DNA of 64,000 bases from NCBI GenBank assembly GCA_034669165.1, contig JAXDOC010000014.1:41110-105109 (forward strand). Reading direction: 5' to 3'. The notes under the pieces are model-generated. The model had not been told where the DNA came from. It made no database searches and saw only the letters and a program-made list of their open reading frames with translations. How positions within the stretch are numbered: the stretch's first letter is position 1; each line of letters starts with the position of its first letter. Positions 35,648 to 50,919 of this stretch are shown here, one piece after another. Position numbers and translations under genes: made by a program. Source of the stretch: Actinomycetota bacterium. GTDB lineage: Bacteria > Actinomycetota > Acidimicrobiia > Acidimicrobiales > AC-14.

Positions 35648-37596
35648 GCCCGGACCGCCTGGCCGTCGTCCGACGGGATACGTCTCGGGGCCGGATCGAC
35701 GGCCGCGACCGCGACCGCCGCCGGCCAGGCGACGGCGAGGACGGCGGCGGCCACGTTCAGACCCGAGTCGTTGAGCACGGAGCCGAGCACCGCCGCGGCC
35801 AGGACCGCATACGCCCCGAACCGAAGCGGGGGACGGGTGCCGGGCGACCAGCGGGTGACGACGAGGGCGGCGGCCGCGATCAGGACCAGGTTGGCCATCG
35901 GCGCCTTGATGGTGGCGACGGCCCGGGTGGCCTTGCGGACGATCTCGTCGCCCAGGCCGTCGCCCCCCACGCTCTTGGCCAGGTGGGTCTGCGAGCCGGC
36001 GTCCCGGGCCAGGTCGACGGCGACGAACAGGCCCAACGCCAGGGCCGCGGCCACACCCAGGAGGAGGACGTGGCGGAGGGTGACCCGCGCCCGCCGGGCC
36101 CCCAGGAGCACCAGCCCGTAGGCGGGGACGGCGAAGAGCACGCCGCCGACGTCGGCCCCGAACTGGGGGGCGCCCCCCGCCACCACGCCCGCGGCCATAG
36201 CCCCGGCCACCCACGGGACCGCCCGCCGGCCCCACCGGTCGATGGCCAGGGCGCCGGCCACGACCAGCCCGGCGGCGAGGAAGCCGGAGCCGATGTTGCC
36301 CACCCCGAAGAAGCGGCCGGCGACCACCGGGGAGTTGCCGAAGGGCGCGTCGATTTGGAGGGGGCTGCCGAAGAAGGCGTCCACCGCCACGACCGCCGCG
36401 GTCAGCGCGGCCAGGGCCCCGACGGCGAGCACCGCGTCGCTCCGGGGGCGGGCGCGGGCCAGGGCCACCCCGCCCAGCGCGATCACGGCCGCCACCAGTC
36501 CACCGACCGCCAGCCCCACCCACGCCCCGCCCCGCCACCACGGGACGAGCATCATGAGCAGGCTGGCCGGGGGGATGGCCAGCAGGATGCAGGCGACCAC
36601 CGTCCGGGCCCGGCGCCAGCGCACGGCCACGAGCGCCCCGAGCAGGTGGAGCACGACGAACAGCCACACCAAGGCGGTGCGCGACCGGTCCGACGTCCAC
36701 GTGCGCCGGTCCCGTTCGACGAGGTCTGGGCGCCCGACGGCGGCGGTCGGCGTGACGACCCCGCCTCCCACCGTCGACGGCGGCGCCACACCCGCCAGGT
36801 GCAGGAACGTCCGGCTCACGTCGGGGAGGGTGGCCAGGTGGTCGTCGTGGGTCGAGGGTGAGCCGAGGCCGGCGGAGCCCAGGCCACAGGCCGGCGAGGC
36901 GGCGAGGACGCCCAGGTGCCGGTTCTCGTCCGGCGTGGAGGCACTGACGACAAGGGCGCACGTGCCGTCGAGGACCCCGAGGACTTCGGGCAGGCCGGCC
37001 GGGACGGCCACCACCAGGGCGTCGGCCCCGGAGCCCAGCGCCGCCTCCAGGCCCGCCATGGTGCCCGGGAAGCTCGGGGGCAGGGTCCCGTCGGAGCTCA
37101 CCGCAACCGCCGCCGCTTCGCTGTTGTCCCCCAGGGTGCCGACCAGGGCCAGCTCCCGGCCGTCGGCCCGGAAGGCGCCGCCCACCGAGCCCAACGCCCC
37201 GCCGTAGTGGAGCCCCCGGTCGTGGTCGACCAGCTCGTCCCACGCCGCCAGCCGCAAGCCGCCCCCGTCCACGGGCTCCCCCCGGCCCACAGCCGCCTCC
37301 GCACCTTCGGCCGGCGCGCCCGACCGCGCCCCCTTCCCCAGCGTGAGGTAGACGTCGGCCGCCCCCGACCGGGACCCGGCCGTGCGCATCGACAGGTTGG
37401 CCTTGGCGTAGCCATCCAGCGCCGGCGGCGCCGCCCCCCAGACGAGGTCGCGCACCAACACCATCGCCACCGGCCGCCGGGCGTCGGTACCGGCCGCCGC
37501 CGCCGACGCGGGCGGGCCCGACCCCATCGTGAGCCCCAGGACGCAGACGGCCCCCACCAGGACGGGCGCGCCGCGTCGGCGTCCGGAGGTCATCAT
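35644..37596 (-). CDS. Large integral membrane protein with signal peptide (hypothetical)
   Basis: 650 aa from the MM start at 37596 (MMTSGRRRGAPVLVGAVCVLGL). An extracytoplasmic N-terminal domain is followed by about 9 TM helices. It is translationally coupled to the glycosyltransferase. Confidence 0.6.
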   Translation of the reverse strand: MMTSGRRRGAPVLVGAVCVLGLTMGSGPPASAAAAGTDARRPVAMVLVRDLVWGAAPPALDGYAKANLSMRTAGSRSGAADVYLTLGKGARSGAPAEGAEAAVGRGEPVDGGGLRLAAWDELVDHDRGLHYGGALGSVGGAFRADGRELALVGTLGDNSEAAAVAVSSDGTLPPSFPGTMAGLEAALGSGADALVVAVPAGLPEVLGVLDGTCALVVSASTPDENRHLGVLAASPACGLGSAGLGSPSTHDDHLATLPDVSRTFLHLAGVAPPSTVGGGVVTPTAAVGRPDLVERDRRTWTSDRSRTALVWLFVVLHLLGALVAVRWRRARTVVACILLAIPPASLLMMLVPWWRGGAWVGLAVGGLVAAVIALGGVALARARPRSDAVLAVGALAALTAAVVAVDAFFGSPLQIDAPFGNSPVVAGRFFGVGNIGSGFLAAGLVVAGALAIDRWGRRAVPWVAGAMAAGVVAGGAPQFGADVGGVLFAVPAYGLVLLGARRARVTLRHVLLLGVAAALALGLFVAVDLARDAGSQTHLAKSVGGDGLGDEIVRKATRAVATIKAPMANLVLIAAAALVVTRWSPGTRPPLRFGAYAVLAAAVLGSVLNDSGLNVAAAVLAVAWPAAVAVAAVDPAPRRIPSDDGQAVRA

Positions 37597-37674
37597 CCGG
37601 TCGCCGAGCGTAGTGAGCCGAATGGTCGCCGCCTCGGCGGACAGGACGGTCCCGGTTCTCCGTACTGTTGGGTC

Positions 37675-37766
37675 GTGGCCGCGCCCCGACTCCTGCCCAT
37701 GCTCGCCGGGGGCAGCGGGCCGCCGCCGAACCCGGACGGGTGGATGTTCGAGCCCAAGCTCGACGG
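37675..37766 (+). pseudogene. 5' fragment of a disrupted ATP-dependent DNA ligase (up to the KLDG of the KxDG motif)
   Basis: It reads V-AAPRLLPMLAGGSGPPPNPDGWMFEPKLDG and then breaks. It is parallel to the N-terminus of the intact ligase at 45621 (SPPRLLPMLAGGSGFPTNPDAFQLEPKLDGQR). Confidence 0.8.
37762..37766. repeat. GACGG junction core, left copy
   Basis: The same pentanucleotide lies at the right junction (47130-47134). This is either a target duplication or the crossover core. Confidence 0.55.
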
Positions 37767-37800
37767 TTCTCCGCACAGACGGGATGTGTCTCAGAGCGGC
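37767..37800. repeat. Left terminal inverted repeat of the element
   Basis: TTCTCCGCACAGACGGGATGTGTCTCAGAGCGGC. It shares TCCGCACAG(A/T)CG and TGTGTC(T)CAGAG blocks with the reverse complement of 47081-47129. Confidence 0.55.
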
Positions 37801-37882
37801 GGCTACTCAAACGGCTGTGAGGCGACTCAAGAGCTGCGACTCGAGTCCAGCGGCGGCGTGCGAGCGGTCTGGAGGTACAGAC

Positions 37883-38443
37883 CTACGGGTCGTGCGTTGC
37901 CAATGGCAATCGCTTCACGAACAACCGTTCCGCCAGGACGGCGATCACCTTGAAGCCCCACGTCGAGAAGACCGGCATGGTGACCGCTTCCTCACGAGTC
38001 GCCGGGCGGAGGGGCGTCGCCCCCTCGTAGAGCATGACGGTGCCGCCGCCGCGGTGGGTCACCTGGCGTAGGCCGCGGATTCCGTCAAGAGCGAGATCGC
38101 GGTGGCCCAGGATCGAGCGACCGTTCTTCTGGATCGTCAGGACGTGCGCCCAACCCTGCGCGACGACGTATCGGCCCGCGATGTCGATCGGTGTCGGCAG
38201 ATCATCACCCTCCCAGTCCATAAGGGCAGCGAGGAACGTCCGGCTGTTTCCGGGGAAGTAGTCGTCCGATTCCCTCTTGATCCCCAGGACCCGGCCGCAT
38301 GCCCACCTGCCGTCGCTCAGCGGGACACCCCAGAATTGGCCCGGCAGAAGGTAAGCGTTCGACTTGGGCTCGAACGGGTACTCCGACGCGGCCACGCCGC
38401 ACGATAAGTGATCGCGTGGCGGGGAGGGTTCACGCTTACCCAC
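37883..38443 (-). CDS. Hypothetical protein (element cargo)
   Basis: 186 aa with coding-like composition (YLLPGQFWGVPLSDGRWACGRVLGI...). I cannot place it confidently in a family. Confidence 0.5.
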   Translation of the reverse strand: MGKREPSPPRDHLSCGVAASEYPFEPKSNAYLLPGQFWGVPLSDGRWACGRVLGIKRESDDYFPGNSRTFLAALMDWEGDDLPTPIDIAGRYVVAQGWAHVLTIQKNGRSILGHRDLALDGIRGLRQVTHRGGGTVMLYEGATPLRPATREEAVTMPVFSTWGFKVIAVLAERLFVKRLPLATHDP

Positions 38444-38579
38444 GGAGCCACGGCACCGAGACTCGGGGCTCGCCCGTCGTCAAGTAGGGCACCATGGACA
38501 CGTCAACCGTCATGACGAGTTCGTCTCCCTGGCACGCCCTCACGCCCTCGGTGATGTCCTCGCGGCCGAGATCTACCGG

Positions 38580-39032
38580 GTGAAGATGCCGACCAGGGCC
38601 CAGCAGCCCTGGATTCTCGGCGGCATCGCCCTCCTCCTTGGGGTCCTCGCCATCAGCACCGGCGAATACTGGGTCTGGTCCCGGTTCGTGCTCGGTGCAA
38701 TCGCCGGCCTGGTCCTGGTGGCATTCATGGTGCTCCGTCGGTTGCGCCGGGAGCCAAATCTCGTCCTCCTGGCTCTCGTGCCCCCTGAGCTGCTCGTTCT
38801 TCGGGTGACGTTCCTGTCGACGCGCTGGAAGGTGATCGACGAGATCGGTCACTGGAGTTTCGACGAGATCGAGGCTGTCCCCGGTGGGGAGGTCCTGGCG
38901 CTGAACCTGATCCTGCCGAACCAGGATTCGCTCGACCTCACTCCTCTGGCTGTCTCCCGGGACGCCTCGCAGATCTCGGCGGCCGTCACCGATGCGGGTG
39001 TTGAGCCGAGGGGCCGACCCAGTGGCGGGTAG
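38580..39032 (+). CDS. Hypothetical two-TM membrane protein (element cargo)
   Basis: 150 aa with two N-terminal hydrophobic helices followed by a small soluble domain. Confidence 0.5.
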   Translation: MKMPTRAQQPWILGGIALLLGVLAISTGEYWVWSRFVLGAIAGLVLVAFMVLRRLRREPNLVLLALVPPELLVLRVTFLSTRWKVIDEIGHWSFDEIEAVPGGEVLALNLILPNQDSLDLTPLAVSRDASQISAAVTDAGVEPRGRPSGG

Positions 39033-39228
39033 GGGCCGCAACTTCGCCTGAGGCACCCGACGGAACCGACGCGTTCCATCTCCGTCGGGCCGGCTCGGTT
39101 TCCCGCTCGGCCTGACCTCAGGTAGGCCAGCTGCCGGCATACGCGCTCTTGCTGACGCCCACCAGCGGGGGCGGCCGCCAGCAAAGTGTGGTTCGCCTAC
39201 GAGGCCCGGATGTTGTATCAACAGGTCG

Positions 39229-39765
39229 ATGGGGCTTATGGCACGACTGGACGCCCTCGATCGCCGCTTCGGGAATGACATCGGTCGTGCTCGGTCGGGA
39301 TCGGGCCGGGCCGAACATTCGCTCGCGTACGGTGTCATTGCCTTAGGCGTGCTTGTCGGCGTGACGCTGCTCGCCCTCAGCGCTTGGAATGGCCACCGTG
39401 ACAGGCGAATCGCAGATCGCCTACGCCACGACGGAGTTGAGGTCGATGCCGTGATCGTCGACGCTCGGACGGCTTACGAGCTCAAGGGGGAGAATGAGCT
39501 GAAGGTTGCCTTCGATGCGAGTGCTGGTCAGCACGTGGAGACGTGGGTGACCGTCAGCCACCCCTACCCACTGGGGCCCACTCGGATCCGGTACTTGCGC
39601 ACCGATCCCAAAGAGGCTCGCCTCCTCGACGACCCCACGCCCCGAGAACACGACTTTCTCGCCCGCGTGATCATCCTCCTGGTTATGGGTTTGATCGGCT
39701 TCGGGATATTCCGCGCCTGCAGGGGTTTCGATCGAATGTTGGGATCGCATCCCAAGCCTCGCTGA
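39229..39765 (+). CDS. Hypothetical membrane protein with DUF3592-like architecture (element cargo)
   Basis: 178 aa arranged as TM helix, beta-rich soluble segment, then a C-terminal TM helix. Confidence 0.5.
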   Translation: MGLMARLDALDRRFGNDIGRARSGSGRAEHSLAYGVIALGVLVGVTLLALSAWNGHRDRRIADRLRHDGVEVDAVIVDARTAYELKGENELKVAFDASAGQHVETWVTVSHPYPLGPTRIRYLRTDPKEARLLDDPTPREHDFLARVIILLVMGLIGFGIFRACRGFDRMLGSHPKPR

Positions 39766-39847
39766 TCACGACTCGGCGTTTCGAGGGCTCCGGCGCTTTG
39801 CGGAGCATCCCTGGCGGCTGACCCAGCGCTGGATACGGTCGGGGTGA

Positions 39848-41242
39848 GTGGAGCTCTTCCTCTCCCGGCGGGAGCTCCTCACGGTCGATGCCTCGATCGA
39901 GGTTCTCGGCGTGCCCGAGCGGATGCCGTTCATCCTCGGCGACGACGGCTCCTACGACCTGCGCCTCAACCAGTTCCTCCGCGAGCTTCCGACCATGGGC
40001 GTGCGGGCCGAGAAGAGCTGGCTGGCCTACGCCCGGGACCTGCTCACCTGGATCCGCTTCCTCGCCGAGCGGCGCAGCCGGACGGTGTGGCTGGCCGAGC
40101 AGGCTGACGTCGCCGCCTTCCACCGGGCCCGGCGCCTCGGCCCGCCGGAGACGGCGGTGTCGTCGGGGACCTGGGACCGGGGCATAGCCACCCTCGACAA
40201 GTTCTACCGGTGGGCCGTCGCCCACGGCCACGTGGAGCGGCTCCCGTTCTCCTACCGGGCCCCTCGGGCGGCGGCGTTCCTGCCCGGCCGGCGCCATCCC
40301 GAGCCGGTGAACCTGGCCAAGGAGCGCCAGGGCCGGCGCCGCCCGCCTGGCTTCCTCTCGGTCGGCGACTACCTCGTCTTCCGCGACGTCGGCCTGCGCG
40401 GTCGCCTGCCCGACGGTTCGGCCGACCCCGCCTTCCGGGGCCGCAACGGCCACCGCAACGCGCTCTTCGCCGAGCTGCTCGTCACCACCGGCATGCGGCT
40501 CAGCGAGGCGGCAAGCTTGCTCCCGGTCGAGCTCCCGCCCCCGGGGTCGGCGAAGTCGGCGCTCCTCGAGCTGGCACCGGTGGTCTGCAAAGGCGGACGG
40601 GGGCGCACCGTGCGCGTCCCGGCGAGGGTGCTGCGCTCGATCAGCGGCTATGTCGACCTCGAACGGCAGAACGCCGTGCTGGGGCACCGCCCAGAGCCCG
40701 ACGGCGAGCCTCAGGTCGTCGGGGCCGACGCCCGGTCCTGCTGGGTGGCGGTGGAGGGCCGGCGCTTCCGGGTGCGCCTGGCCAGGATGACGCCGGCCCA
40801 CCGCCTGGCCGCGGTCGAGGTCGACGAGTCGGGCCGGCGGGCTCCGATGGCACTGTGGCTGGGCGAGGGCGGCGCGCCCGTCTCGCCCCGGGCCTGGGAG
40901 GCGGTCTTCCATCGGGCCAGCGCCCGATGCCGGGAACTGGGCCATGCGATCGACGCCAGCCCGCACACGCTGCGCCACACCTTCGCCGTCCACATGCTCT
41001 CGCTGCTCATCCGAGAGCAGATCGCCTCGGTCGAGGGAGCCGCTCCCGACCCCGCCACCGCTCCCTACCGGCGACTCCTGGGCGACCCTCTGCAGCACCT
41101 CCAGCGGCTGCTCGGACACCGCAGCGTCGCCACGACCTACATCTACCTGGACAGCCTGGCCGAGGCGCAATGGCTCGTCGACGACGCCATCGACCGCTGG
41201 TCCAGGGAGATCGGCCCCGAGGCCGGCGATGTCGTCGCCTAG
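39848..41242 (+). CDS. Tyrosine recombinase/integrase (trio gene 1, canonical catalytic motifs)
   Basis: 464 aa with TTGMRLSEAASL (Arg I), SPHTLRHTFAVHM (HxxR) and LLGHRSVATTYIYLD (His and catalytic Tyr). Confidence 0.9.
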   Translation: MELFLSRRELLTVDASIEVLGVPERMPFILGDDGSYDLRLNQFLRELPTMGVRAEKSWLAYARDLLTWIRFLAERRSRTVWLAEQADVAAFHRARRLGPPETAVSSGTWDRGIATLDKFYRWAVAHGHVERLPFSYRAPRAAAFLPGRRHPEPVNLAKERQGRRRPPGFLSVGDYLVFRDVGLRGRLPDGSADPAFRGRNGHRNALFAELLVTTGMRLSEAASLLPVELPPPGSAKSALLELAPVVCKGGRGRTVRVPARVLRSISGYVDLERQNAVLGHRPEPDGEPQVVGADARSCWVAVEGRRFRVRLARMTPAHRLAAVEVDESGRRAPMALWLGEGGAPVSPRAWEAVFHRASARCRELGHAIDASPHTLRHTFAVHMLSLLIREQIASVEGAAPDPATAPYRRLLGDPLQHLQRLLGHRSVATTYIYLDSLAEAQWLVDDAIDRWSREIGPEAGDVVA

Positions 41243-43070
41243 CCCGGCCGGCGTCAGTCGTGGTCGGAGGCGGGTCACCTTCGAGCCGGAGGCCGAGCCG
41301 GAGAAATCGAAGGTCACCTCGGTGGGCTTCGTGCGCCACACCCTGGTCTTCGACGAGGGCAAGACGCTCTCCCTCGACTACACCGGCCTGCCGTGTCCCC
41401 GGCTGGTCCGCCACCTGACCGCCGCCCTGGCCAGCCGGGCCGGCGTCGGCGGCGGGCACCTCACCATCGGGACGGGGCGGATGTACGGCAGCGCCATCCG
41501 GGCCTTCGTGCCCTTCATCGCCGGCCGCTACCCGGCCCGGGTGCGATCGTTCGACGCCAGCGATCTCACCGCCGCCGACATCGACGCCTTCGAGGAGGCG
41601 CAGCGAAGTCGTCTGCCGAGCGACAGTGGCACCCCTTACCTCCGCGTGGGCTCGGTGGTGCGGCTGCTGCGCGTCCTGGCCGAGGGCGGTCAGGTCGCCT
41701 TGCGAACCGACCTGCTGGCCCGCCTCGACTACGTGGCCAACGGCCTCAAGGGCCACTCCACCCCCCGGGACGCCTACAGCCCGGCGGAGACGTCGAGGCT
41801 CCGGGACGCCTGCCGGGCCGACGTCCTGGCCATCATCGAACGGCTCACCGTCACCGGCGAGCAGCGTCTGGCAACGGGTTGCGAGCCTGTCGGCCGTGGC
41901 TGGAGAGTGCCCGAGAACGTGATGTGGCACATCGATCGCCACGGCCCCGTGCGCGAAAGCGAGCTCCAGAAGCACCAGGGCCGTCTGAAAGTGGGCTTCC
42001 GCATCGCCGACCTGAACAAGCTGCTCTATCCGACGAGGGCGGACCTGGTGCCGTTCCTGCTGCTACTGGCGCTGGAGAGCGGCCTTGAGCTCGAGGCGTG
42101 CAAGGAGCTGCGGGCCGACTGCCTCGGCACGGCCACCGGCGGGCGGGTCGAGATCCACTACCGCAAGCGCCGGGCCGGGTCCTATCAGTGGCGGTCGTTG
42201 TGGGTCCGCGACGCCGGGATGTTCTCGCCCGGGCGGCTGGTCCGCATCGTGCTGCGCCTGACCAGCCGGGCCCGGGCCCATTCGGGTTCGGAGTGGCTGT
42301 GGCTCTCGGTGCACAATCCGCGCGTCACCCGCCCGACCTTCACCGTCGGATCGAGTCTCTTCACCAGCTTCGTCGCCCGTCACGGCCTGTGCGCCGACAG
42401 CGGGGACCCTCTGTCGCTGCAGCCCGTCCGGTTGCGCAAGACCTACAAGGCCGGGCGCTATCTCATCACCCAGGGTCAGCTTCCGGACTTCGCCGGCGGA
42501 AGCCACACCGAGACCGTCGCCGGCGACCACTACGGGGCCATCGAGGCCCTGCGGCCGTTCCACGAGGCGGCGATCGAGCGGGCCCTGCTCGAAGCCGTCG
42601 CCGTCGGCCGGGCCTGCAAGGTGGTCACGGCCGAGCAGGAGACGGAGCTGGCCGCCGACCCGGCGCTGGGCAGTGAGGTGCTCGGTGTCGCACCGGCGGA
42701 GGTCCAAGCGTTCCTGGGGGGGGAGCAGGACGTCTGGCTGTCGAGCTGCCGGGACTTCTTCGATTCGCCCTTCGGGACTCCGGGCTCGGCCTGCCCCACC
42801 CCGTTCTGGGCCTGCCTGGGGTGCTCCAACGCCGTCATCACGACCCGGAAGCTTCCTGCCCTGCTGTCGTTCCTGGCCCACATGGTCGAAGCGAGGACCA
42901 GGATGGCGGCCGAGCCCTGGGCCGCCACCTACGGCGAGGCACACCGCCTGCTCACCGAACACGTCCTGCCCCGATTCCCGCCGGCGGTGATCGCCGCCGC
43001 CCAGGCTGCGGCCAGTGTGGAGCCCAGCCTCGTCTATCTCCCACCGCAACTGCGAGTGGGCCGACCGTGA
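41229..43070 (+). CDS. Large tyrosine-recombinase-family protein (trio gene 2, degenerate motifs)
   Basis: 613 aa. The ATG at 41229 overlaps gene 1 by 14 nt. Box-II-like segments are LQPVRLRKTYKAG and GSHTETVAGDHYGAI. The C-terminal Cys cluster is CPTPFWACLGCSNAVIT. Confidence 0.7.
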   Translation: MSSPSPAGVSRGRRRVTFEPEAEPEKSKVTSVGFVRHTLVFDEGKTLSLDYTGLPCPRLVRHLTAALASRAGVGGGHLTIGTGRMYGSAIRAFVPFIAGRYPARVRSFDASDLTAADIDAFEEAQRSRLPSDSGTPYLRVGSVVRLLRVLAEGGQVALRTDLLARLDYVANGLKGHSTPRDAYSPAETSRLRDACRADVLAIIERLTVTGEQRLATGCEPVGRGWRVPENVMWHIDRHGPVRESELQKHQGRLKVGFRIADLNKLLYPTRADLVPFLLLLALESGLELEACKELRADCLGTATGGRVEIHYRKRRAGSYQWRSLWVRDAGMFSPGRLVRIVLRLTSRARAHSGSEWLWLSVHNPRVTRPTFTVGSSLFTSFVARHGLCADSGDPLSLQPVRLRKTYKAGRYLITQGQLPDFAGGSHTETVAGDHYGAIEALRPFHEAAIERALLEAVAVGRACKVVTAEQETELAADPALGSEVLGVAPAEVQAFLGGEQDVWLSSCRDFFDSPFGTPGSACPTPFWACLGCSNAVITTRKLPALLSFLAHMVEARTRMAAEPWAATYGEAHRLLTEHVLPRFPPAVIAAAQAAASVEPSLVYLPPQLRVGRP

Positions 43071-45211
43071 CCGTCGTCCGCCCGACACCCGTCACGCCGG
43101 CGACATCGCCCCACTACCTTCCCGACGCACCCGTGCTGCGCGGCCGCCTGCTGGGCGATTCCGCCCTTCCCGCCTTCCGCCGCGGACGTGGACTGCCCGA
43201 CGATCGGCCACCGGTCTTCGGCGACGACGTGTGGCCTCTGGGCTGGGCCCACACCCGCCGCAACGTCGAGCCATCGACGCTGCTGGTCGACTTTCGTGGC
43301 ATCGAGGCGCCCGTGCGGCGGCTGACGGCGAAGGAGTATCTCTACGCCCGGCTCAACGAGCGGGTGATGGGGATCAAGTGCACCCTCCCTGTCCAGATAG
43401 TCCGCCAGGAGCTCAATTTCCTCCTCGCCTTCTTCGCCTTTCTCGACAACCAGCAGGGGGCTATGGCGCTGGGCGAAGTGGACCAGGAGGTGCTCGACGC
43501 CTACCGCCTGTGGTGTCAGGCCGGCACGAGCGGCAGGGGCGCCCCGATCGGGGCCGCCGCGGTGGCGAGCTACATCTCCGTCACCATCCGCCTGGCCCTT
43601 TGCGGCGAGTTCCTGAGCCAGGACCGCCTGCAGATCATGCCGTGGCGTGGGCGGTCGGCCTACGTCGTCGCCGGAGTGGTGGAGCGGACCGAGAACGCCA
43701 CCCCCCGCATCCCTGAGGCGGTGCTGGGGGCGCTGCTGCGCTGGGCGCTGTTCTATGTGGAGGTCGCCGCCACGGACATCCTGGCGGCGAGCAACGAGCT
43801 CGCCCAGCTGGAGGCCCGCCTGAGGACTCCCCCGGGCCCGTCAGCCCAGCTATCGGCCTGGATCGAGACCCGACGGGCAGCCGGACGGGGAATCCCCGCT
43901 CTGGCGGTGAAGGGGGATGGCGCGTCGGAGCGACGGCTGTCAGCCAACACCAACCTCGTCCGCCGGATGGCGGGTCTGCCGGGTCGCTCTCTCGACTCTG
44001 ACTGCTGCCAACGGATGCTGAGGGACGCCGTCAACGAGTTGGGACTCGAGCTGGGGGGCCTCGACACCGCGGTCTCGCCGGACCCGTCGACCGGTCGGCC
44101 ATGGCGATCGCCCTTCACTCCCAAAGACCTGCGCGTTGAGCGACGAATGGTGCAGGCCGCCTGCTACATCGTGTGCGCCTACCTGTCGGGCATGCGGGAC
44201 TCCGAGCTGCAGGAGCTGCGCCGGGGCTGCCACGTCGTCCAGCGCAGCGCCGACGGCGTGATCGGCCACCACAAGCTGCGTGGCCAGGTGTTCAAAGGTC
44301 GCGGCGCTCAGGGCGAGGAGGCGTCCTGGGTCGTGATCGACCCGGTCGTGCGGGCGGTGGAGGTCCTCGAGGCCATGCACTCCCACGACCATCTGCTCAC
44401 CTCCCCGAGCCACGACGTCTACCCCAGCCCGGCCGTCCGGTCGGGCGATCTCACCGGAGGCGCCAGACTCGGCCCCTCGGTGGTGAGGCTCATCAACGAG
44501 TTCCGGGATCATCTCAACGCCACCCAGGGCGAGGGGGGTGAGGCCGCCGTCCCCGACCACGAGGGCCGGCCGTGGCACTTCACCACCGGCCAGTTCCGCC
44601 GCACGCTGGCATGGCACATCGCCCACCAGCCCTTCGGAATCGTCGCCGGCATGCTCCAGTATCAGCACGTGTCGGTGGCGACCTTCGAGGGCTACGTTGG
44701 CCAGAGCCCCTCCGGGTTCCAGCGGGAGGTGGAGGCCGAACGCAGGCTCGCGGCCCTCGACGACCTGGTCGACGACTACCGGGACCATCTGGCGGGCCTG
44801 CCGTCGACGGGTGGGGGTGCGGCCAAGCGCAACGCCGTGTTCGCCCACGTTCACGACAGTCTCGACGACTCAGGGCCGGTGGTCGACGACGCCCGCTTGC
44901 GGGCCATGCTCAAGCACGCGGCCCGGACGCTCTACCCCGGGGTCCTCAACGACTGCTTCTTCGAGCGCGACGGCGCGCTGTGCCTCCGATCCTTCGGCGA
45001 GGGCGCCAACGAGCCGCTGCTCCCGCTCTGCCAGCCCAACCGCTGCGGCAACTCCGTCATCACCGACGGCCACGTCACGAGCTGGAAGCACGCCATCGGC
45101 GAGGTCAGAGTCCACCTCCGCCAGAAGGACCTGAGCCAGAACCAGCGCCACGCCCTGAAAGCCAAGCTCTCCGAGATGGAGGCGGCCATCGCTCCGCTCG
45201 ACCAGCCGTGA
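43067..45211 (+). CDS. Large tyrosine-recombinase-family protein (trio gene 3)
   Basis: 714 aa. The GTG at 43067 overlaps the gene 2 stop (GTGA). Motifs are YLSGMRDSELQEL (Arg I-like), TTGQFRRTLAWHIA, and LQYQHVSVATFEGYVG (His/Tyr). The C-terminal Cys cluster is CFFERDGALC...CQPNRCGNSVIT. Confidence 0.8.
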   Translation: MTVVRPTPVTPATSPHYLPDAPVLRGRLLGDSALPAFRRGRGLPDDRPPVFGDDVWPLGWAHTRRNVEPSTLLVDFRGIEAPVRRLTAKEYLYARLNERVMGIKCTLPVQIVRQELNFLLAFFAFLDNQQGAMALGEVDQEVLDAYRLWCQAGTSGRGAPIGAAAVASYISVTIRLALCGEFLSQDRLQIMPWRGRSAYVVAGVVERTENATPRIPEAVLGALLRWALFYVEVAATDILAASNELAQLEARLRTPPGPSAQLSAWIETRRAAGRGIPALAVKGDGASERRLSANTNLVRRMAGLPGRSLDSDCCQRMLRDAVNELGLELGGLDTAVSPDPSTGRPWRSPFTPKDLRVERRMVQAACYIVCAYLSGMRDSELQELRRGCHVVQRSADGVIGHHKLRGQVFKGRGAQGEEASWVVIDPVVRAVEVLEAMHSHDHLLTSPSHDVYPSPAVRSGDLTGGARLGPSVVRLINEFRDHLNATQGEGGEAAVPDHEGRPWHFTTGQFRRTLAWHIAHQPFGIVAGMLQYQHVSVATFEGYVGQSPSGFQREVEAERRLAALDDLVDDYRDHLAGLPSTGGGAAKRNAVFAHVHDSLDDSGPVVDDARLRAMLKHAARTLYPGVLNDCFFERDGALCLRSFGEGANEPLLPLCQPNRCGNSVITDGHVTSWKHAIGEVRVHLRQKDLSQNQRHALKAKLSEMEAAIAPLDQP

Positions 45212-45624
45212 GCAGCGTCAGCCCGGCCGCCGAGCAGGCGCTGCAGGAAGCCCTGGGCCGTCTCGGCGAGGGCCGACCGCTGCGATCCGACGGCGCCCTC
45301 ACCGTCTCGGGCCTGGCCGTCGAGGCGGGCGTCAGCCGGTCGACGGCCAACCGGGCCAGCACCGTCCTGGCCGCCCTGCGAGCGTTGCGGTCGGCCGCTG
45401 AGTCCCGGCCCACGCCCGCCAGCCCTGCCAGTGACGAGCGGACGGCTCGCATCGAGATGGAGCTCCTGCGCCGGGCCCACGGGCAGCGGGTGGCGGCGCT
45501 GGAGGCCTCGATCGACACCCTCGCTCAGCACGTTCAGGTGCTCACCCTCGACAATGAGCGGCTGAGGAGGACCGTTGCAACGTATGCAGGGAACGTGACG
45601 CCGATGAAGGACGCCGAGCCGTGA
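45208..45624 (+). CDS. Small HTH plus coiled-coil protein (TnpC-like position)
   Basis: 138 aa. The GTG overlaps the gene 3 stop (GTGA). It has an HTH-like segment LTVSGLAVEAGVSRSTANRA and a C-terminal heptad-like region (IEMELLRRAHGQRVAALEASIDTLAQHVQVLTLDNERLRR). Confidence 0.65.
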   Translation: MSSVSPAAEQALQEALGRLGEGRPLRSDGALTVSGLAVEAGVSRSTANRASTVLAALRALRSAAESRPTPASPASDERTARIEMELLRRAHGQRVAALEASIDTLAQHVQVLTLDNERLRRTVATYAGNVTPMKDAEP

Positions 45625-46643
45625 CCGAAGCCGAAGCCTCGGGCTCGCCCCCGCGCCTGCTCCCAATGCTCGCCGGCGGCAGCGGCTTCCCGACCAACCC
45701 CGACGCCTTTCAACTAGAGCCCAAGCTGGATGGCCAGAGGGTGATCGGGATCAGCGAACCCGCCGGCGTTACCTTGCTGAACCGTCGGGGCGGCGAGATC
45801 ACCGCCACCTATCCCGAGCTGGCCGGGCTGGCCGAGGCCCTGGCGCCGCACTCGGCCGTGCTCGACGGCGAGATGGTCACGTTCAACGAGAAGGGCCAGA
45901 CCAGCTTCCAGCGCCTCCAACGGAGGATGCACGTCAAGCAGCCGACGGCCCGTCTGCTCGCCGATACGCCGGTGTCGTTCGTCGTGTTCGACGTGCTGTG
46001 GCTCGACGGGGAGCTGCTCGTCGACCGCTCGCAGTCCGAGCGGCGGACGATCCTCGACGGCCTCGGGATCAAGGGACGGGCGTGGCAGACCGCCCCCGTC
46101 CTCGCCGCCACTCCCGAGGAGCTGATGGACGCCTGCCGTCAGCTCGGCCTCGAGGGATTCATGGCGAAACGACGCGACGCGCCCTACCTTGTCGGCCGCC
46201 GGTCGTCGGCCTGGTCGAAGATCAAGTGCGGCCGCCGACGGGAGTTCGTGGTCGGCGGGTGGTCCACCGGGAGCGGCTCCCGGGAGACCAGCATCGGTTC
46301 CCTGGCCCTTGGCGTCTATGACGTGACTCCCGAGGAGGCGGAGCGCGAAGGGCGGCCGCCGCGCCTCTTCTATACCGGCCAGGCCGGCTCGGGCCTCAAC
46401 GAGGAGATGATCCAGCGGCTCACCCGTCTCTTCGCCGAGATCGAGGAGCCGACGCCCGCGTTCGTCAACCCGCCGAGGGCGCCGCTCCATTGGGTCCGGC
46501 CCATGCTGGTCGTCGAGATCGCCTACACCGAGGTCACCGACGGCGGAACCCTTCGCCAGCCCTCGATCAAGGGCCTCCGGACCGATGTCATCGCCGACGA
46601 GGTGACGTTCGACGACGAGCTGGCGACGTGTTTCTCGAGGTGA
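45621..46643 (+). CDS. ATP-dependent DNA ligase, ligase-domain only (LigD-LigDom/LigC-like), element-borne and intact
   Basis: 340 aa. The GTG overlaps the upstream stop (GTGA). The EPKLDGQR adenylation motif, FDVLWLDGE, EGFMAKR, WSKIKC and an OB-fold C-terminus are present. Confidence 0.9.
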   Translation: MTEAEASGSPPRLLPMLAGGSGFPTNPDAFQLEPKLDGQRVIGISEPAGVTLLNRRGGEITATYPELAGLAEALAPHSAVLDGEMVTFNEKGQTSFQRLQRRMHVKQPTARLLADTPVSFVVFDVLWLDGELLVDRSQSERRTILDGLGIKGRAWQTAPVLAATPEELMDACRQLGLEGFMAKRRDAPYLVGRRSSAWSKIKCGRRREFVVGGWSTGSGSRETSIGSLALGVYDVTPEEAEREGRPPRLFYTGQAGSGLNEEMIQRLTRLFAEIEEPTPAFVNPPRAPLHWVRPMLVVEIAYTEVTDGGTLRQPSIKGLRTDVIADEVTFDDELATCFSR

Positions 46644-46713
46644 CTATCCCCTTGGCCCGCGTCGTCGTTCATCCTGGAGGCGTGACCAAACTCACCCTGG
46701 GCCCCCCTTTGAG

Positions 46714-47070
46714 ATGAGCACGCCGCATGGCGACTTCCCTCGAGTGATGAAGGCGCTGGCGAACGCGCCCATCGGGACGCTCCGGGAGCTCCTCTTCAGG
46801 ATCTGCGTTATGGCCCTGGTATGCACCGTTTGGCTTGCGCGCACCTGGGCTGGAGCCATTTTCGGAACGCTGATCTTCGTGATGGCGCTGGTGGGGGGCC
46901 GCGCCGCACAACTACGAGCGGAGCAAGACGGCCGTGTTGAGCAGGAGCGGCTGCAGCAGGAAAAGTTCCGGTCCAAGGTCCACGGATGGGCCGCGGGGAC
47001 CCGCATCATGTTCTTCTTGTTCGTCCTCGGATTCCTGGCGTGGATGGTGTTCGACCTCTTCGCGGCGTGA
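46714..47070 (+). CDS. Small membrane protein (element right arm)
   Basis: 118 aa with three hydrophobic helices, in a less GC-rich region. Confidence 0.5.
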   Translation: MSTPHGDFPRVMKALANAPIGTLRELLFRICVMALVCTVWLARTWAGAIFGTLIFVMALVGGRAAQLRAEQDGRVEQERLQQEKFRSKVHGWAAGTRIMFFLFVLGFLAWMVFDLFAA

Positions 47071-47080
47071 TCATGGGACC

Positions 47081-47129
47081 GGGCTCTCTGACACACCTGT
47101 CCCTGGTGACACACGACTGTGCGGATAAC
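47081..47129. repeat. Right terminal inverted repeat of the element
   Basis: The reverse complement is GTTATCCGCACAGTCGTGTGTCACCAGGGACAGGTGTGTCAGAGAGCCC. It matches the left-end blocks TCCGCACAG and TGTGTC(T)CAGAG. Confidence 0.55.
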
Positions 47130-48050
47130 GACGGCCAGCGCATCATCGCCGTCGTGGAGGACGGCCACGTCGTCCTCGTCAACCGGCGGGGCCTGGAGGC
47201 CACCGCCACCTTCCCCGAGCTGGAAGGCATGGCCGGCGCCCTCGCCCCCCACGCGGTCGTCCTCGACGGGGAGGTGGTGGCGTTCAACGAGAAGGGCCAG
47301 ACCAGCTTCCAGCGCCTGCAGCGGCGGATGCACGTCGTCCAGCCGACGTCCCGGCTCCTGGCCGACACGCCCGTGTCCTTCGTCGCCTTCGACGTCCTCT
47401 GGCTCGACGGCGAGCTCCTCGTCGACCTCCCCCAATCCGAGCGCCGCCGGATCCTCGACGGGCTCGGGCTGAAAGGCCGGGCCTGGCAGACGGCGCCCGT
47501 CCTCGACGCCACGCCGGCCGAGCTGGTCGACGCGTGCCGCGAGGCGGGCCTGGAGGGGTTCATGGCCAAGCGGGTCGACGCCCCCTACCTCCCCGGCCGG
47601 CGCTCCACCGCGTGGTCGAAGATCAAGTGCGGCCGGCGGCGGGAGTTCGTGGTCGGCGGGTGGTCGACCGGCACCGGTTCGAGGGAGTCGAGCATCGGGT
47701 CGCTCGCCCTCGGCGCCTTCGACGTGACCCCCGACGAGGCCGAGGTCGCCGGCCGCCAGCAGCGGCTTTTCTACGTCGGTCAGGCCGGGTCCGGGCTCAA
47801 CGAGGACATGATCCGCCAGCTCACCCGCCTCTTCGCCCAGATCGAGGAGCCGCTCAGCCCGTTCGTCAACCCGCCCCGGGCCAAGCTCCACTGGGTTCGC
47901 CCGCTGCTCGTGGTCGAGGTCGCCTACACCGAGGTCACCGAGGCGGGCACCCTCCGCCAGCCGTCGATCAAGGGCCTGCGCACCGACGTCATCGCCACCG
48001 ACGTGACCTGGGACGACGAGTTGGCCGAGGCCTTCGCCGGGCGCACCTAG
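47130..48050 (+). pseudogene. 3' portion (from DGQR of the KxDG motif to the stop) of the disrupted chromosomal ATP-dependent DNA ligase
   Basis: It reads DGQRIIAVVEDGHVVLVNRRG... to the stop. It is collinear and gap-free with residues after KLDG of the element ligase. It has no N-terminal LLPMLA...FEPK segment of its own. Confidence 0.85.
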
Positions 48051-48129
48051 GCCGAAAAGGCGTTTCCCGGTGGGCTTCCGGGGAAGGAAAGCACTCAGAG
48101 CAAGGCGGGGATCACGAAGGGAGAAGGGT

Positions 48130-48360
48130 TTGTCGAATGGCGCCCATGAACTGAGCCTGGAAGACCTCGAAGCGGAGGAAGCCACCGCGCTCCCCGAGCG
48201 GGAGGCCATGTCGAAGGTCCACCTCGGCGCGGGGTTGGGCATCGACAACTTCGCCATGCCGATCAACGAGGCCACGGCCATGAACATCAACTCGACGGAC
48301 GCCGTCGCCATCGCCGACGCCGACCAGATCGTCATCATCACCCAAGCCGACGTGGACTAG
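48130..48360 (+). CDS. Small acidic peptide, paralog 1 (leader-like N-terminus plus Ala/Asp/Asn/Ile-rich C-terminus)
   Basis: A TTG start at 48130 is preceded by GAAGGGAGAAGGG. The sequence is LSNGAHELSLEDLEAEEATALPEREAMS-KVHLGAGLGIDNFAMPINEATAMNINSTDAVAIADADQIVIITQADVD. Confidence 0.6.
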   Translation: MSNGAHELSLEDLEAEEATALPEREAMSKVHLGAGLGIDNFAMPINEATAMNINSTDAVAIADADQIVIITQADVD

Positions 48361-48372
48361 GAGGACGAACCC

Positions 48373-48693
48373 ATGAGCCAGACCCAGAAGCCCGAGATGT
48401 CCCTCGAGGAGATGGACGAGGAGTCCGCCGCCGCTCTCCCCGACCGGGAGGCGATGTCGCTGCTCGACCTTGCCCTCAACCTCGACCTGGCCCTCGACCT
48501 GGCCGCACCGGTCGACGCGGCGGTCGCCGCCAACGCCAACGTGGCCGCCCCGATCGACGCGGCCGTGGCCGCCAACATCGCCTCCGTCGGGTCGGAGGCC
48601 ACCGCCGTCGCCGACCAGGACTCCGTGATCATCCAGGAGCTCGACGGCACGGCCATCGCCAACGCCACCCAGGGCGCCACCATCGAGCAGTAG
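48373..48693 (+). CDS. Small acidic repeat peptide, paralog 2
   Basis: AGGAGG lies upstream. The sequence is MSQTQKPEMSLEEMDEESAAALPDREAMS-LLDLALNLDLALDLAAPVDAAVAANANVAAPIDAAVAANIASVGSEATAVADQDSVIIQELDGTAIANATQGATIEQ. Confidence 0.7.
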   Translation: MSQTQKPEMSLEEMDEESAAALPDREAMSLLDLALNLDLALDLAAPVDAAVAANANVAAPIDAAVAANIASVGSEATAVADQDSVIIQELDGTAIANATQGATIEQ

Positions 48694-48725
48694 CTCGCCC
48701 GACCACTTTTTGGAGGAGAACCCCG

Positions 48726-49106
48726 ATGAATGAAGCAACTGGTCTTACCGACGCCGAGCTCGAGTCCCAGGACGTCACCGCCGTTCCCGACCGGGAGGCG
48801 ATGTCGGTGCTGGACGCCCTCGACCCGGCGGCACTGCTGGGGACGTCGCTGCTCAACGTCGACGTCGACCTCAACCTCGACGCCGACGTGGCTGCGCCCA
48901 TCGACGCCGCCATCGCCGCCAACGCCAACGTGGCCGCACCGATCGACGCCGCCGTGAGCGCCAACGTCCTGTCCGTCGACTCCGACGCGGCCGCCCTGGC
49001 CGACCAGGACTCGCTCATCGCCCAAGACCTCGACGGCACCGCCATCGCCACCGCCATCCAGGACGCCGGCATCGACCAGGGCGGCGCCAGCGCCGCCGCC
49101 GGCTGA
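48726..49106 (+). CDS. Small acidic repeat peptide, paralog 3
   Basis: GGAGGAG lies upstream. The sequence is MNEATGLTDAELESQDVTAVPDREAMS-VLDALDPAALLGTSLLNVDVDLNLDADVAAPIDAAIAANANVAAPIDAAVSANVLSVDSDAAALADQDSLIAQDLDGTAIATAIQDAGIDQGGASAAAG. Confidence 0.7.
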   Translation: MNEATGLTDAELESQDVTAVPDREAMSVLDALDPAALLGTSLLNVDVDLNLDADVAAPIDAAIAANANVAAPIDAAVSANVLSVDSDAAALADQDSLIAQDLDGTAIATAIQDAGIDQGGASAAAG

Positions 49107-49147
49107 GCTGACGGTCGCTCCGTACCTCCGCCTCCCGGACCCTGACG

Positions 49148-50896
49148 ATGACGCAGCAGATGGACGAGACGGTCCGCATCGCCCGGGCACCCGGGAGGCA
49201 CGGCGACCGGAAGCCGGCCCGTGAACGGCCCCCCCGTCGTGGAGACGGTCGCGAGACCGATGCCAGCGTTCCCCAGCTGGCCAGCGGGGTCGAGCTCATC
49301 GGCGAGTACGAGGCATCGGGCTACAAGGAAGCCCCCTGCCTCGTGCGCCGGGCCGACGGCCAGACGATCCAGCTGACCCCCCTGCTCTACGCGACCCTCG
49401 AGCAGATCGACGGCCAGCGCGACGTGTCCCAGATCTCCACCGCCCTGGGCGAGCGCCTGGACCGGCCGGTGAGCGCCGACAACGTGCGCTACCTGGTGCA
49501 CGAGAAGCTGCGCCCGGCGGGCGTGGTCAAGGACCGCGACGGGCGCGACCCCGAGGTGCAGAAGGCCAATCCCCTGCTCGCCCTCCGCCTGCGCCTCCAG
49601 ATCACCGGCGAGCAGGCGACGAACCGCCTCACCGCGCCCTTCGCCATCCTGTTCCGGCCGTGGGTGGTCGTGCCGGTGGTGGCCGGATTCGTGGCGGTGG
49701 TGGCGTGGGTGATCGGTTCTCGGGGCGTGGGGGCCGGCGCCCGCCAGCTCCTCTACTCGCCGGGCCTGATGCTGCTCACGTTCGCCCTCACGATCCTTTC
49801 CGCCTCGTTCCACGAGTTCGGCCACGCCGCCGCCTGCCGCTACTCGGGCGGACGACCGGGGGCGATGGGCTGCGGCCTCTACCTGGTGTGGCCCGCCTTC
49901 TACACCGACGTCACCGACGCCTACCGCCTCGACCGCCGGGGCCGCCTGCGCACCGACCTGGGCGGCCTCTACTTCAACGCCATCTTCGCCCTCGCCACCT
50001 TCGGCGTGTGGGCCCTCACCGGCGTCGAGGCCCTCCTGCTGCTCATCCCATTGCAGGTGCTGCAGATGGTGCACCAGCTGCTGCCGTTCATCCGCATGGA
50101 CGGCTACCACATCCTCTCCGACCTGGTCGGGGTGCCCGACCTGTTCGCCCGCATCAAGCCCACGCTCCTCGGCTTCGTGCCCGGCCGCCGCCACCAGGAG
50201 AAGGCGGCGGTGCTGAAGCCCTGGGTGCGGGTGGTCGTCGCCCTGTGGGTGCTCACGGTCGTGCCCCTGCTGCTCTTCAGCCTGCTGACGGTCGTGATCT
50301 CGGCCCCCCGCATGGTCGCCACCGCGTGGGACTCGATCGGCCTCCAGTGGCGGGTCGTCCGCATCGCCTTCGACACCCACAAGTGGCTGACCGTGCTCGT
50401 CGGCGGGCTGGGCGTGATCGCCCTCGCCCTCCCCGTCCTCGGCTCGGGCTACGCGGTGGGCCGGTTCGGCCGCCGGGCCGGCTCGTGGGGATGGTCGCAG
50501 GCGGGGGAGATCCGTTTCGGCCGACCGATGATGGCGCTGCTGACGGTGGGTCTGGCCGGCGCGCTGGCGTTCACCTGGTGGCCCAACGGCGAATATCGCC
50601 CGATCCAGCCCGGCGAACGGGGCACCGTCACCGACGCCGTCGCCGCCGTGTCCGACGTGGGCACGGGTCGGCCCGGCCTCACCCCGGAGACGGAGGCCGA
50701 ACTCGACGGTGCCCCCAGTCAGGCGTGGAACCTGAGCCAGGGCCCGACCGAGGAGGCGCCCCCGCCGGAGGAGGTCGTCGACGACCCGCTGACGCCCGCC
50801 GGCGACCAGTCCCCGACCCCCACCACCACCATCGCCGGCTCCGGCGACGACGAGCCGTCCTCCAACTCTGTCCCGCCGACCACCACGGCCGGCTAA
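49148..50896 (+). CDS. M50/site-2-protease-family membrane metalloprotease with an N-terminal PqqD/RRE-like domain and a Pro/Thr-rich tail
   Basis: HEFGH and the second S2P motif LLPFIRMDGYHILSD lie in TM helices. The N-terminal soluble segment is QLTPLLYATLEQIDGQRDVSQISTALGERLDRPVSADNVRYLVHEKLRPAGVV. Confidence 0.8.
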   Translation: MTQQMDETVRIARAPGRHGDRKPARERPPRRGDGRETDASVPQLASGVELIGEYEASGYKEAPCLVRRADGQTIQLTPLLYATLEQIDGQRDVSQISTALGERLDRPVSADNVRYLVHEKLRPAGVVKDRDGRDPEVQKANPLLALRLRLQITGEQATNRLTAPFAILFRPWVVVPVVAGFVAVVAWVIGSRGVGAGARQLLYSPGLMLLTFALTILSASFHEFGHAAACRYSGGRPGAMGCGLYLVWPAFYTDVTDAYRLDRRGRLRTDLGGLYFNAIFALATFGVWALTGVEALLLLIPLQVLQMVHQLLPFIRMDGYHILSDLVGVPDLFARIKPTLLGFVPGRRHQEKAAVLKPWVRVVVALWVLTVVPLLLFSLLTVVISAPRMVATAWDSIGLQWRVVRIAFDTHKWLTVLVGGLGVIALALPVLGSGYAVGRFGRRAGSWGWSQAGEIRFGRPMMALLTVGLAGALAFTWWPNGEYRPIQPGERGTVTDAVAAVSDVGTGRPGLTPETEAELDGAPSQAWNLSQGPTEEAPPPEEVVDDPLTPAGDQSPTPTTTIAGSGDDEPSSNSVPPTTTAG

Positions 50897-50919
50897 CCAC
50901 CAGCGTGATCACCAAGGAG

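Follow-up and report, generated by a model that had tools for sequence, protein, structure and literature searches.

Why would a mobile element that cuts a host ligase gene in two carry a complete ligase of the same family behind its own recombinase genes? The question is raised by a stretch of 64,000 nt, hereafter the window, from an Actinomycetota bacterium (Acidimicrobiales; AC-14; GCA_034669165.1, contig JAXDOC010000014.1, positions 41,110-105,109 of the forward strand), with a GC content of about 72%. An element of 9,362 bp (37767-47128) lies there inside a chromosomal ligase gene of the non-homologous end joining (NHEJ) type, here called T, and contains five overlapping genes, A to E, the last of which encodes a ligase. 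The reading we favour, at a probability of roughly 0.6, is that of a multi-recombinase transposon with site specificity for ligase motif I, whose last coupled cistron supplies a functional replacement ligase. Compensation of the host for the interrupted gene had been one of the readings offered in an initial annotation of the window; it is now the best supported of them, because the ligase is limited to a subclade that targets ligase genes, because it stays under purifying selection after the recombinases have decayed, and because elements that target the unrelated gene ardC provide a parallel.

The position of the element can be read from the two pieces of T. A tblastn search with the element ligase returned a second ligase, with codons ~11-38 at 37684-37767, ending in EPKLDG, and codons 37-339 at 47130-48038, beginning with DGQR and 80% identical in amino acids. 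This search and the intact orthologues of four related loci, L170-L173, place the 5' fragment of T at 37675-37766 (+ strand), with a putative GTG start at 37675 and its end at EPKLDG in motif I, and the 3' fragment at 47130-48050 (+ strand), which is open over 306 codons and begins with DGQR. The halves rejoin as EPKLDG/QR, the slash marking the insertion, and the cut falls in motif I just past the catalytic lysine. An empty version of the locus with an intact ligase occurs in the close relatives L170, L171, L172 and L173. The rejoining halves and the empty sites confirm a ligase gene as the place of insertion. Within the right inverted repeat, an in-frame GTG (47106) might serve as the start of a T product of 314 amino acids that would lack the catalytic lysine.

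The left end of the element (37767-37794) consists of the terminal inverted repeat TTCTCCGCACAG (37767-37778) and the subterminal GTGTCTCAG (37786-37794), and the right end (47088-47128) of the subterminal CTGACACAC (47088-47096) and GTGACACAC (47106-47114) followed by the terminal inverted repeat CTGTGCGGATAA (47117-47128). The terminal inverted repeats are 12 bp long and imperfect, with 11 of 12 positions matching, and are accompanied by subterminal repeats of the CTGACACAC type. The left junction reads ...AAGCTCGACGG/TTCTCCGCACAG... and the right junction ...CTGTGCGGATAA/CGACGGCCAGCGC..., the left spacer CGACGG (37761-37766) being the target's own sequence and the right spacer CGACGG (47129-47134) the sequence found at the junction. 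The full target site is AAGCTCGACGGCCAGCGC, and its counterpart within the element ligase is AAGCTGGATGGCCAGAGG. The left end is conserved in L002, L083, L086, L169 and L175, and the right end in L001, L002, L083, L086, L087, L169 and L175.

Motif I of a ligase is the insertion site in seven of the eight loci of the ligase-bearing subclade, the same xGACGG being used in the window, L169, L175, L002, L083, L086 and L087. At least three different target genes are involved: the window type, the target of L002 and the KWDG-type target of L086, which is only 52-56% identical to the other ligases; the target of L083 is likewise of the KWDG type. Left and right spacers are both CGACGG in the window and L169, TGACGG and GGACGG in L002, GGACGG and CGACGG in L083 and L086, and CGACGG and GGATGG in L175; for L087 and L001 no left spacer was found, and the right spacers are GTACGG and AGACCG, respectively. 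The left spacer fits the local codons at every locus and the right spacer often misfits, while the ligase-site form xGACGG accounts for four of the six distinct spacer values tabulated. Such behaviour is described for Tn554, Tn552-II and the SE elements discussed below, into whose new sites the spacer of the previous one is carried (PMC10214605, PMC12486829); as far as junctions can tell, it points to serial moves from ligase gene to ligase gene.

The eighth locus, L001, is a 96.4% identical copy that lies outside any ligase gene (AGACCG/GCTGCGCGCC) and includes both the ligase and the right end. Since it carries the ligase at a site that is not a ligase gene, the ligase is part of the mobile unit. 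The view that the ligase is the element's own gene, not incidental cargo, is thus upheld: it travels with the operon in L001 and follows D across the subclade. The left end of L001 was not located by an inverted-repeat search and inspection of open reading frames (ORFs) on this contig, which has many indels. L001 (6161-12559; metagenome-assembled genome MFD01916.bin.1.57, contig_3184) shows apparent A-B and C-D fusions and many frameshifts, probably long-read indel errors, as homopolymer runs are visible; the cargo of its right arm is unlike that of the window.

All five genes lie on the + strand. A (39848-41242) encodes a tyrosine recombinase of 464 amino acids, B (41229-43070) starts with ATG and encodes 613, C (43067-45211) 714, D (45208-45624) 138 and E (45621-46643), the element ligase, 340 amino acids. 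A and B overlap by 14 nt, the ATG of B standing upstream of the TAG stop of A, and GTGA start/stop overlaps join B to C (43067-70), C to D (45208-11) and D to E (45621-24), in exact agreement with the initial annotation. Four-base overlaps are frequent in high-GC operons and unremarkable by themselves. The 14-nt A/B overlap and the 4-nt overlaps recur in independent gene calls of the relatives L083, L086 and L175, and this recurrence makes them a feature of the operon rather than an accident of ORF calling. The description of the five genes as one coupled unit is supported, and translational coupling from A to the ligase is predicted. A simple consensus scan of 37600-48200, uninformative at 72% GC, gave no promoter-like site and no terminator-like site on the + strand.

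The product of E is predicted to be an ATP-dependent ligase of the LigD ligase-domain type. It is complete, with matches to Pfam DNA_ligase_A_M PF01068 (3.4e-31) and DNA_ligase_A_C PF04679 (7.3e-21) and an intact EPKLDG (KxDG) motif, and its best-scoring models are of the LigD/NHEJ type, TIGR02779 reaching 215.9 bits, just below its cut-off of 227.75. With adenylation and OB domains, an intact KxDG and its high identity to T, it is indeed a complete paralogue of the interrupted ligase. Purifying selection acts on this ligase, also in elements with decayed recombinases. The ratio of nonsynonymous to synonymous divergence (dN/dS) of E against other element ligases is 0.14-0.35, and no decayed ligase occurs among the eight loci of the subclade. 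In L169, whose genome has diverged from the window by about 10%, the element occupies the same locus with a frameshift in A and a deletion from mid-A to the end of C, while D and the ligase are intact. L087 has lost A and B, and its C and D are broken, yet it keeps a full ligase. Between the window and L169 the element ligase shows a synonymous divergence (dS) of 0.27 and a dN/dS of 0.14, against 0.28 and 0.17 for the N-terminal part of A, 0.27 and 0.18 for D, and 0.18-0.32 and 0.14-0.26 for host genes.

The origin of this copy was addressed by the phylogeny of element-borne and chromosomal ligases that the initial annotation had proposed, built here as a neighbour-joining tree with bootstrap. 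Element ligases are intermixed with chromosomal ones: those of the window type group with the chromosomal ligases of L170 (85% bootstrap) and L171 (72%), and the element ligase of L002 groups with its own target (72%) and with the element ligase of L083 (83%), while the targets of the window and L169 and the chromosomal ligase of L173 form a separate clade (100%). The nesting of element among chromosomal ligases implies capture of, or exchange with, local alleles more than once, or else ancient conversions; the suggestion that an ancestral copy of the target had been captured is thereby supported, probably with more than one such event. No recent gene conversion between the element ligase and its target was detected, as there are no near-identical tracts and dS is ~0.77.

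A matches Pfam Phage_int_SAM_1 and Phage_integrase and has the full catalytic set R217, K248, H373, R376, H424 and Y433, conserved in 54 homologues. Profile searches with B and C gave no match in Pfam, NCBIfam or PDB sequences, and a minority of their homologues match integrase SAM-like or catalytic profiles. B is without the first catalytic arginine (E287 stands there) and keeps R403, H426 and Y435, C has R377, K410, R511/R512, H534 and Y543, and both share a conserved C-terminal cluster of four cysteines. AlphaFold models of B and C have a mean predicted local distance difference test score of 81 each; the top 21 Foldseek matches of the B model are Cre/Tre/Tn1549 Int, and the top matches of the C model are Cre/Tre, XerA, Tn1549 Int and XerH, all with a probability of 1.00. 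From the profile matches of A and the models of B and C, all three are predicted tyrosine-recombinase folds, A and C catalytically complete and B incomplete. D, described earlier as a small helix-turn-helix protein, does show an N-terminal segment resembling such a motif in the alignment, followed by a C-terminal coiled coil, with weak matches to NCBIfam VPA1267_fam; it is the counterpart of TnpC/Srap/GinD.

By analogy with Tn554, the SEs (integrative elements of the strand-biased circularizing type) and the GInt elements, A to D would act together, with a division of labour that we infer. Their module would form a circle in which ...CTGTGCGGATAA meets TTCTCCGCACAG... across a 6-bp spacer, and the circle would insert at xGACGG, where ligase motif I (KxDG) has its Asp-Gly codons. 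Of the two spacers, the left would be the 6 bp of the target itself, and the right would be the 6 bp brought from the previous site. The insertion cuts the host's NHEJ ligase past the catalytic lysine, the element brings a complete ligase of the same family, presumably active in NHEJ, and the cell would thereby keep ligase activity as long as the element is resident.

How far the ligase follows the module was assessed by a genome scan with C, which confirmed at least 550 loci, 80 of which were fetched for inspection. Homologues of C of about 700 amino acids number in the hundreds, and the A-B-C-D synteny occurs in Actinomycetota, Chloroflexota, Alphaproteobacteria, Acidobacteriota and Planctomycetota. 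Some 80 loci from metagenomes have it too, as do 300 PLSDB plasmids, among them pTi-SAKURA and pNL1, whose copies bear the annotation hypothetical or integrase. Judging by multicopy genomes and contigs of ~6.2 kb, a minimal element may be little more than the four genes. Among about 165 A-B-C-D loci, a ligase follows D only in a subclade of Acidimicrobiia, defined by a C that shares at least ~64% identity with the window's (the window, L001, L002, L083-85, L086, L087, L156, L169 and L175). As to the five-gene synteny that the initial annotation asked to be sought, the ligase follows D in every member of this subclade, with seven of eight loci in ligase motif I, and is absent from more than 150 loci that have the module. 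Metagenome contigs scanned with C yielded only relatives of ~40% identity and, from the ligase subclade, a single small fragment (L156), with no new junctions.

A parallel case is found in Alphaproteobacteria, where members of the family have the ends TTATCCTGAC... and ...GTTCAGATAA and insert either in ardC, at YAxEELV/AE, or in a neighbouring DUF932-like gene, at LLSHR/AELV (L081 5690-19152, L082, L039-L041, L046, L071, L075 and others). In the ardC subclade the gene after D encodes a full ArdC, with ArdcN and zincin domains, ~39% identical to the interrupted ArdC, and this carried copy reads EECTVE exactly at the position of the target's EELVAE. Genes for ArdC and DUF932-like proteins are typical of conjugative plasmids and of integrative and conjugative elements, and the ardC-targeting elements may ride on conjugative DNA.

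The altered site in the carried ArdC finds its counterpart in the element ligase. The target-type site inside E (45726-45746, + strand) reads AAG CTG GAT GGC CAG AGG GTG, with the rare codons GAT and AGG where used targets have GAC and CGC or CGG. A column-wise codon test covered five lineages of element ligases and the 193 columns in which one degenerate amino acid is conserved; just two of these columns have rare codons in four or more of the five lineages, the motif-I Asp and the Arg three codons on, at and beside the insertion point. The rare codon for the Asp is GAT, where every occupied target has GAC, and those for the Arg are AGA, AGG or CGA, where targets have CGC or CGG. The six used sites, with the secondary site of L001 among them, all have S-C-G at +7 to +9 past the spacer, which an AGR codon abolishes. 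Counted in sliding windows around the site, rare codons were not significant alone. We give about an even chance that the altered site shields the element ligase from insertion.

One chromosomal gene belongs beside this comparison. L174 (9001-10990; GCA_030448245.1, JAUJNH010000003.1) is a chromosomal ligase in an operon with a LigD Prim-Pol, with no element within 9 kb; its motif I codons CTA, AAA, CTT, GAT, CAA and AGG are as in element ligases, and other chromosomal ligases exceed it in GC content at third codon positions. Domestication of an element ligase could explain it, or else escape of a host gene from targeting.

Several observations weigh against compensation by a protected spare copy. 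The split target is itself constrained: between the window and L169, T has a dS of 0.27 and a dN/dS of 0.18, on par with host genes, with 33.5 nonsynonymous differences against about 160 that we estimate under neutrality. Rejoined, T has 332 open codons with no stop codon and no frameshift, and to call the target destroyed, as had been done, is an overstatement. Each lineage may accordingly have a young or reversible insertion, and lasting compensation would then be needed less. Element ligases do not form a clade apart from the chromosomal ones, which fits repeated passive capture too, and the coupling from A to the ligase is predicted from sequence. At the site, the right spacer GGATGG of L175 implies that a CTG-GAT-GG site was used at least once, the element ligase of L087 keeps GAC, that of L169 has CGG, a reversion, and the element-free chromosomal ligases of L171 and L174 also have GAT. 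Among other members of the family, some ardC-targeting elements carry no ardC, and several subclades have unrelated fifth genes (S1-domain protein, SulP/Usp, ERCC4-Lsr2, TIR-NB-ARC); a second copy of the fifth gene, sought in the flanks of the Streptomyces S1-domain, SulP/Usp and ERCC4-Lsr2 groups, was not found. In the larger elements of the Streptomyces loci L025, L031, L048, L056, L059 and L066 (~12400-14000), the gene after D encodes an S1 RNA-binding-domain protein of 500-547 amino acids that is 87-90% identical between species and has no second copy in the 10-kb flanks.

The simplest reading of a constrained split target is turnover at the site, with occupation that is reversible or repeatedly renewed and each T allele intact for long periods. 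The empty-site orthologue in L173 is intact, 85% identical to T and has the same site codons. In L175 the flanks are 92% identical to the window, and the element at the same site is a mosaic: compared with the window, A reaches 97% identity and the ligase 92%, but B, C and D no more than 64-78%. The L175 element lies at 7454-15930 (ENA ERZ25039476, contig_38550), and its right spacer matches the recoded site of the element ligase; in L169 the split target lies at 8341-8457 and 11508-12431.

In a rival reading, the element stabilises itself: by cutting the host ligase and supplying the sole working copy it would make its own loss costly. This differs from compensation in the beneficiary and is compatible with it, and it gains from the ligase outlasting the recombinases in L169 and L087, which implies that the host depends on the element copy, and from reports that SE-type elements leave no empty donor site (PMC10214605). 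Precise excision would nevertheless restore the target, as the 6-bp repeat keeps the reading frame, and the target is intact and constrained, so the host is not locked in; as the explanation of the ligase, addiction of this kind is unlikely.

Passive capture, in which copies of the target are a by-product of residence, through aberrant excision or recombination, and benefit neither host nor element, draws on the same tree that places the window-type E with the L170 ligase and the L002 ligase with its target, suggesting repeated acquisition or exchange, and on a cargo that is otherwise variable in the family. It fits poorly with a dN/dS of 0.14-0.35 over long divergence and a decayed copy in none of eight loci, with the constant position of the ligase right after D, and with the two most conserved rare codons lying at the target site; moreover, aberrant excision from either junction would yield a gene fragment, not a complete gene. 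We consider it unlikely as well.

A part for the ligase in the transposition or integration chemistry, or in end protection together with Ku, had also been proposed. On this reading it would seal nicks in the circle or repair the donor or target site, possibly with Ku. The overlap of the ligase start with the stop of D in the window, L001 and L175 would suit such a role, as would the nicked double-stranded DNA reported for SE circles in vivo (PMC10214605). More than 150 loci with the four-gene module do without a ligase, however, the fifth-gene slot holds ArdC in the ardC subclade, and the ligase is under purifying selection where the recombinases are dead (L169 and L087); E and the interrupted host gene are also members of one family, and in the tree E falls within the chromosomal ligases. 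The proposal is not supported, and we regard it as improbable.

An old, vertically fixed insertion that is no longer mobile, its site specificity reflecting a single event in related genomes, would account for the locus common to the window, L169 and L175 and for the equal dS of ~0.27 of element and host genes between the window and L169, and is highly improbable given the 96% copy at a different site in L001, the other, 52-56% identical ligase hit as KWDG-type target in L086 and L083, the 64-78% identical B, C and D beside a 97% identical A at the same locus in L175, the right spacers that vary between loci and the empty sites in close relatives (L173).

The replacement-ligase transposon that we favour may be one instance of something wider. 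It is tempting to hypothesize, tentatively and with more doubt than confidence, that an unnamed and widespread four-gene family has repeatedly evolved a strategy of breaking a target and bringing a protected spare. Its lineages would home to the DNA of invariant catalytic motifs (ligase KxDG in Acidimicrobiia, ArdC EELVAE in Alphaproteobacteria), the fifth cistron would be an intact, site-altered paralogue of the target, the ligase copies would be renewed from local alleles, and the target would stay under selection through reversible or turning-over occupation.

The surroundings of T place it in an NHEJ context. A Ku gene (57792-58565, + strand; tblastn with the Ku of L002, 84% identity) lies outside the element, ~10 kb from the ligase; it directly follows the intact ligase in the empty-site relative L170, the only one in which it adjoins, and Ku and Prim-Pol follow the target ligase in L002. 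Ku is the probable NHEJ partner of the target ligase, and for E an association with NHEJ is suggested by homology to the target only. The interval between ligase and Ku (48361-57757) holds small paralogous ORFs with an internal repeat of ~240 bp (48450-48690 and 48839-49079), an ORF of 582 amino acids, a phosphoribosyltransferase, a STAND/NACHT-type NTPase of 1088 amino acids, and UbiA- and CHAT-type genes; as Ku adjoins the ligase in L170, this block may be a separate island, possibly of defence. On the other side, a gene for a membrane protein of 710 amino acids (34210-37650, - strand) lies between an aldehyde dehydrogenase gene and the ligase, its 5' end overlapping the ligase start; it is present in L170-L173 and L175 and missing in L169.

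The remaining cargo varies from element to element. The left arm of the window (37883-39765, ~2 kb) holds an ORF with a weak Imm26 match (37883-38443, - strand) and two membrane ORFs (38580-39032 and 39229-39765, both + strand); it is missing from L169 and replaced by other genes in L002 (4702-5853, DUF4304), L083 (175-2277, DUF7683) and L086 (319-1917, a pair of extracytoplasmic function sigma factors). The right arm holds one ORF (46714-47070, + strand) for a predicted membrane protein of 118 amino acids, common to L169 and absent in L001.

These findings extend elements of the Tn554/SE/GInt kind, studied in Firmicutes and in Gamma- and Betaproteobacteria, to Actinomycetota, Chloroflexota and Alphaproteobacteria and to the plasmids pTi-SAKURA and pNL1. 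Compensated gene targeting would mean that a selfish element lands in the most conserved stretch of a repair gene and pays with a spare copy, and the same logic with the unrelated ardC makes this idea directly testable. For annotation, extra LigD-type ligases beside "hypothetical" proteins of 600-700 amino acids should be taken for element cargo, and truncated ligase ORFs next to them for split targets. A short site in a near-universal ligase motif is what the recombinases recognise, which may interest those who seek programmable or conserved-site integrases.

Among known systems, RIT elements, which the trio had brought to mind in the initial annotation, have ordinary-size recombinases recognised by integrase profiles, long inverted repeats and no small fourth gene. 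The window element shares with them three adjacent, overlapping tyrosine-recombinase genes and differs in its proteins of 464, 613 and 714 amino acids, in B and C without a Pfam or NCBIfam match, in its 12-bp inverted repeats and in the presence of D; it is not RIT-like. Islands in tRNA genes or dusA likewise settle in a conserved gene without paying for its disruption, rebuilding the target by duplicating only the displaced gene end at the att site, whereas the window element leaves its target split and brings a separate, complete and diverged paralogue.

The module is closest to the Tn554/SE/GInt multi-recombinase group, with four core genes. Within that group, SEs give the best match in gene order, inverted repeats and the behaviour of the spacers; an operon followed by cargo recalls GInts, and the carry-over of the spacer recalls Tn554. 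SEs carry intA-tfp-intB-srap and have imperfect terminal inverted repeats of 13-19 bp and 6-bp spacers, the right spacer being the footprint of the previous site, and Gammaproteobacteria are the only group in which their core genes were detected (Idola et al. 2023, PMC10214605). The window element has the same gene order of ordinary tyrosine recombinase, incomplete recombinase-fold protein, large tyrosine recombinase and small protein, as well as short imperfect terminal inverted repeats, 6-bp spacers and few specific target sites; left and right spacers are unequal in L002, L083, L086 and L175, and the junctions suggest that the right one comes from the previous site. It differs in belonging to a family of Actinomycetota, Chloroflexota, Alphaproteobacteria and other phyla, the likeness being judged by description, in a B that keeps R, H and Y and is without the first Arg only, and in the target paralogue, which is not described for SEs.

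GInts carry ginABCD at their 5' end, with GinA and GinB complete and GinC without the first Arg, between imperfect direct repeats of 10-17 nt, with an AT-rich 3' end (Bardaji et al. 2017, PMC5385486). They share with the window element an operon of three recombinase-type genes and a small helix protein, site-specific insertion into coding ends of genes, staggered cuts of 6 nt as inferred for GInts, and cargo that begins at the stop of the fourth gene, into which transcription continues in GInts. The first Arg is missing from the third protein in GInts and from the second, B (E287), in the window, where C has R377. In the window, moreover, A is preceded by 2 kb of cargo, the ends are inverted repeats with 6-bp spacers, and no AT-rich 3' end was seen. 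In the classic SE and GInt layout all cargo stands after the fourth gene. The core genes of both were reported mainly or only in Gamma- and Betaproteobacteria (PMC10214605, PMC5385486).

The comparison with Tn554, also made in the initial annotation, stands for the site-specific tyrosine-recombinase transposon and for the spacer apparently carried in from the previous site, and fails for the gene set: Tn554 has the three genes tnpA/tnpB/tnpC without a B-like protein, against four conserved genes in more than 150 loci here, instead of two integrases and a small third protein. The nearest precedent for the ligase is the staphylococcal Tn554-like Tn552-II, in which a target-gene-like gene, tgl, lies directly downstream of tnpABC, with rescue as its suggested role; the element targets a YolD-like gene, tgl keeps a copy of att, and the study reported neither a pattern across the family nor an analysis of selection (Wan et al. 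2025, PMC12486829). In both systems a homologue of the interrupted gene stands right after the transposition genes, the ligase after D in eight loci and ArdC in the ardC-targeting relatives; Tn554 and Tn552-II differ in their Firmicutes hosts and, for Tn552-II, in a YolD-like target rather than a ligase.

Literature searches returned no description of ardC-targeting or ligase-carrying recombinase elements. The A-B-C-D family looks like a separate, undescribed branch, set apart from SEs and GInts by their descriptions; the ligase case, the ardC parallel and the constrained split target appear to be new, and the idea of target-like cargo has one precedent, in tgl.

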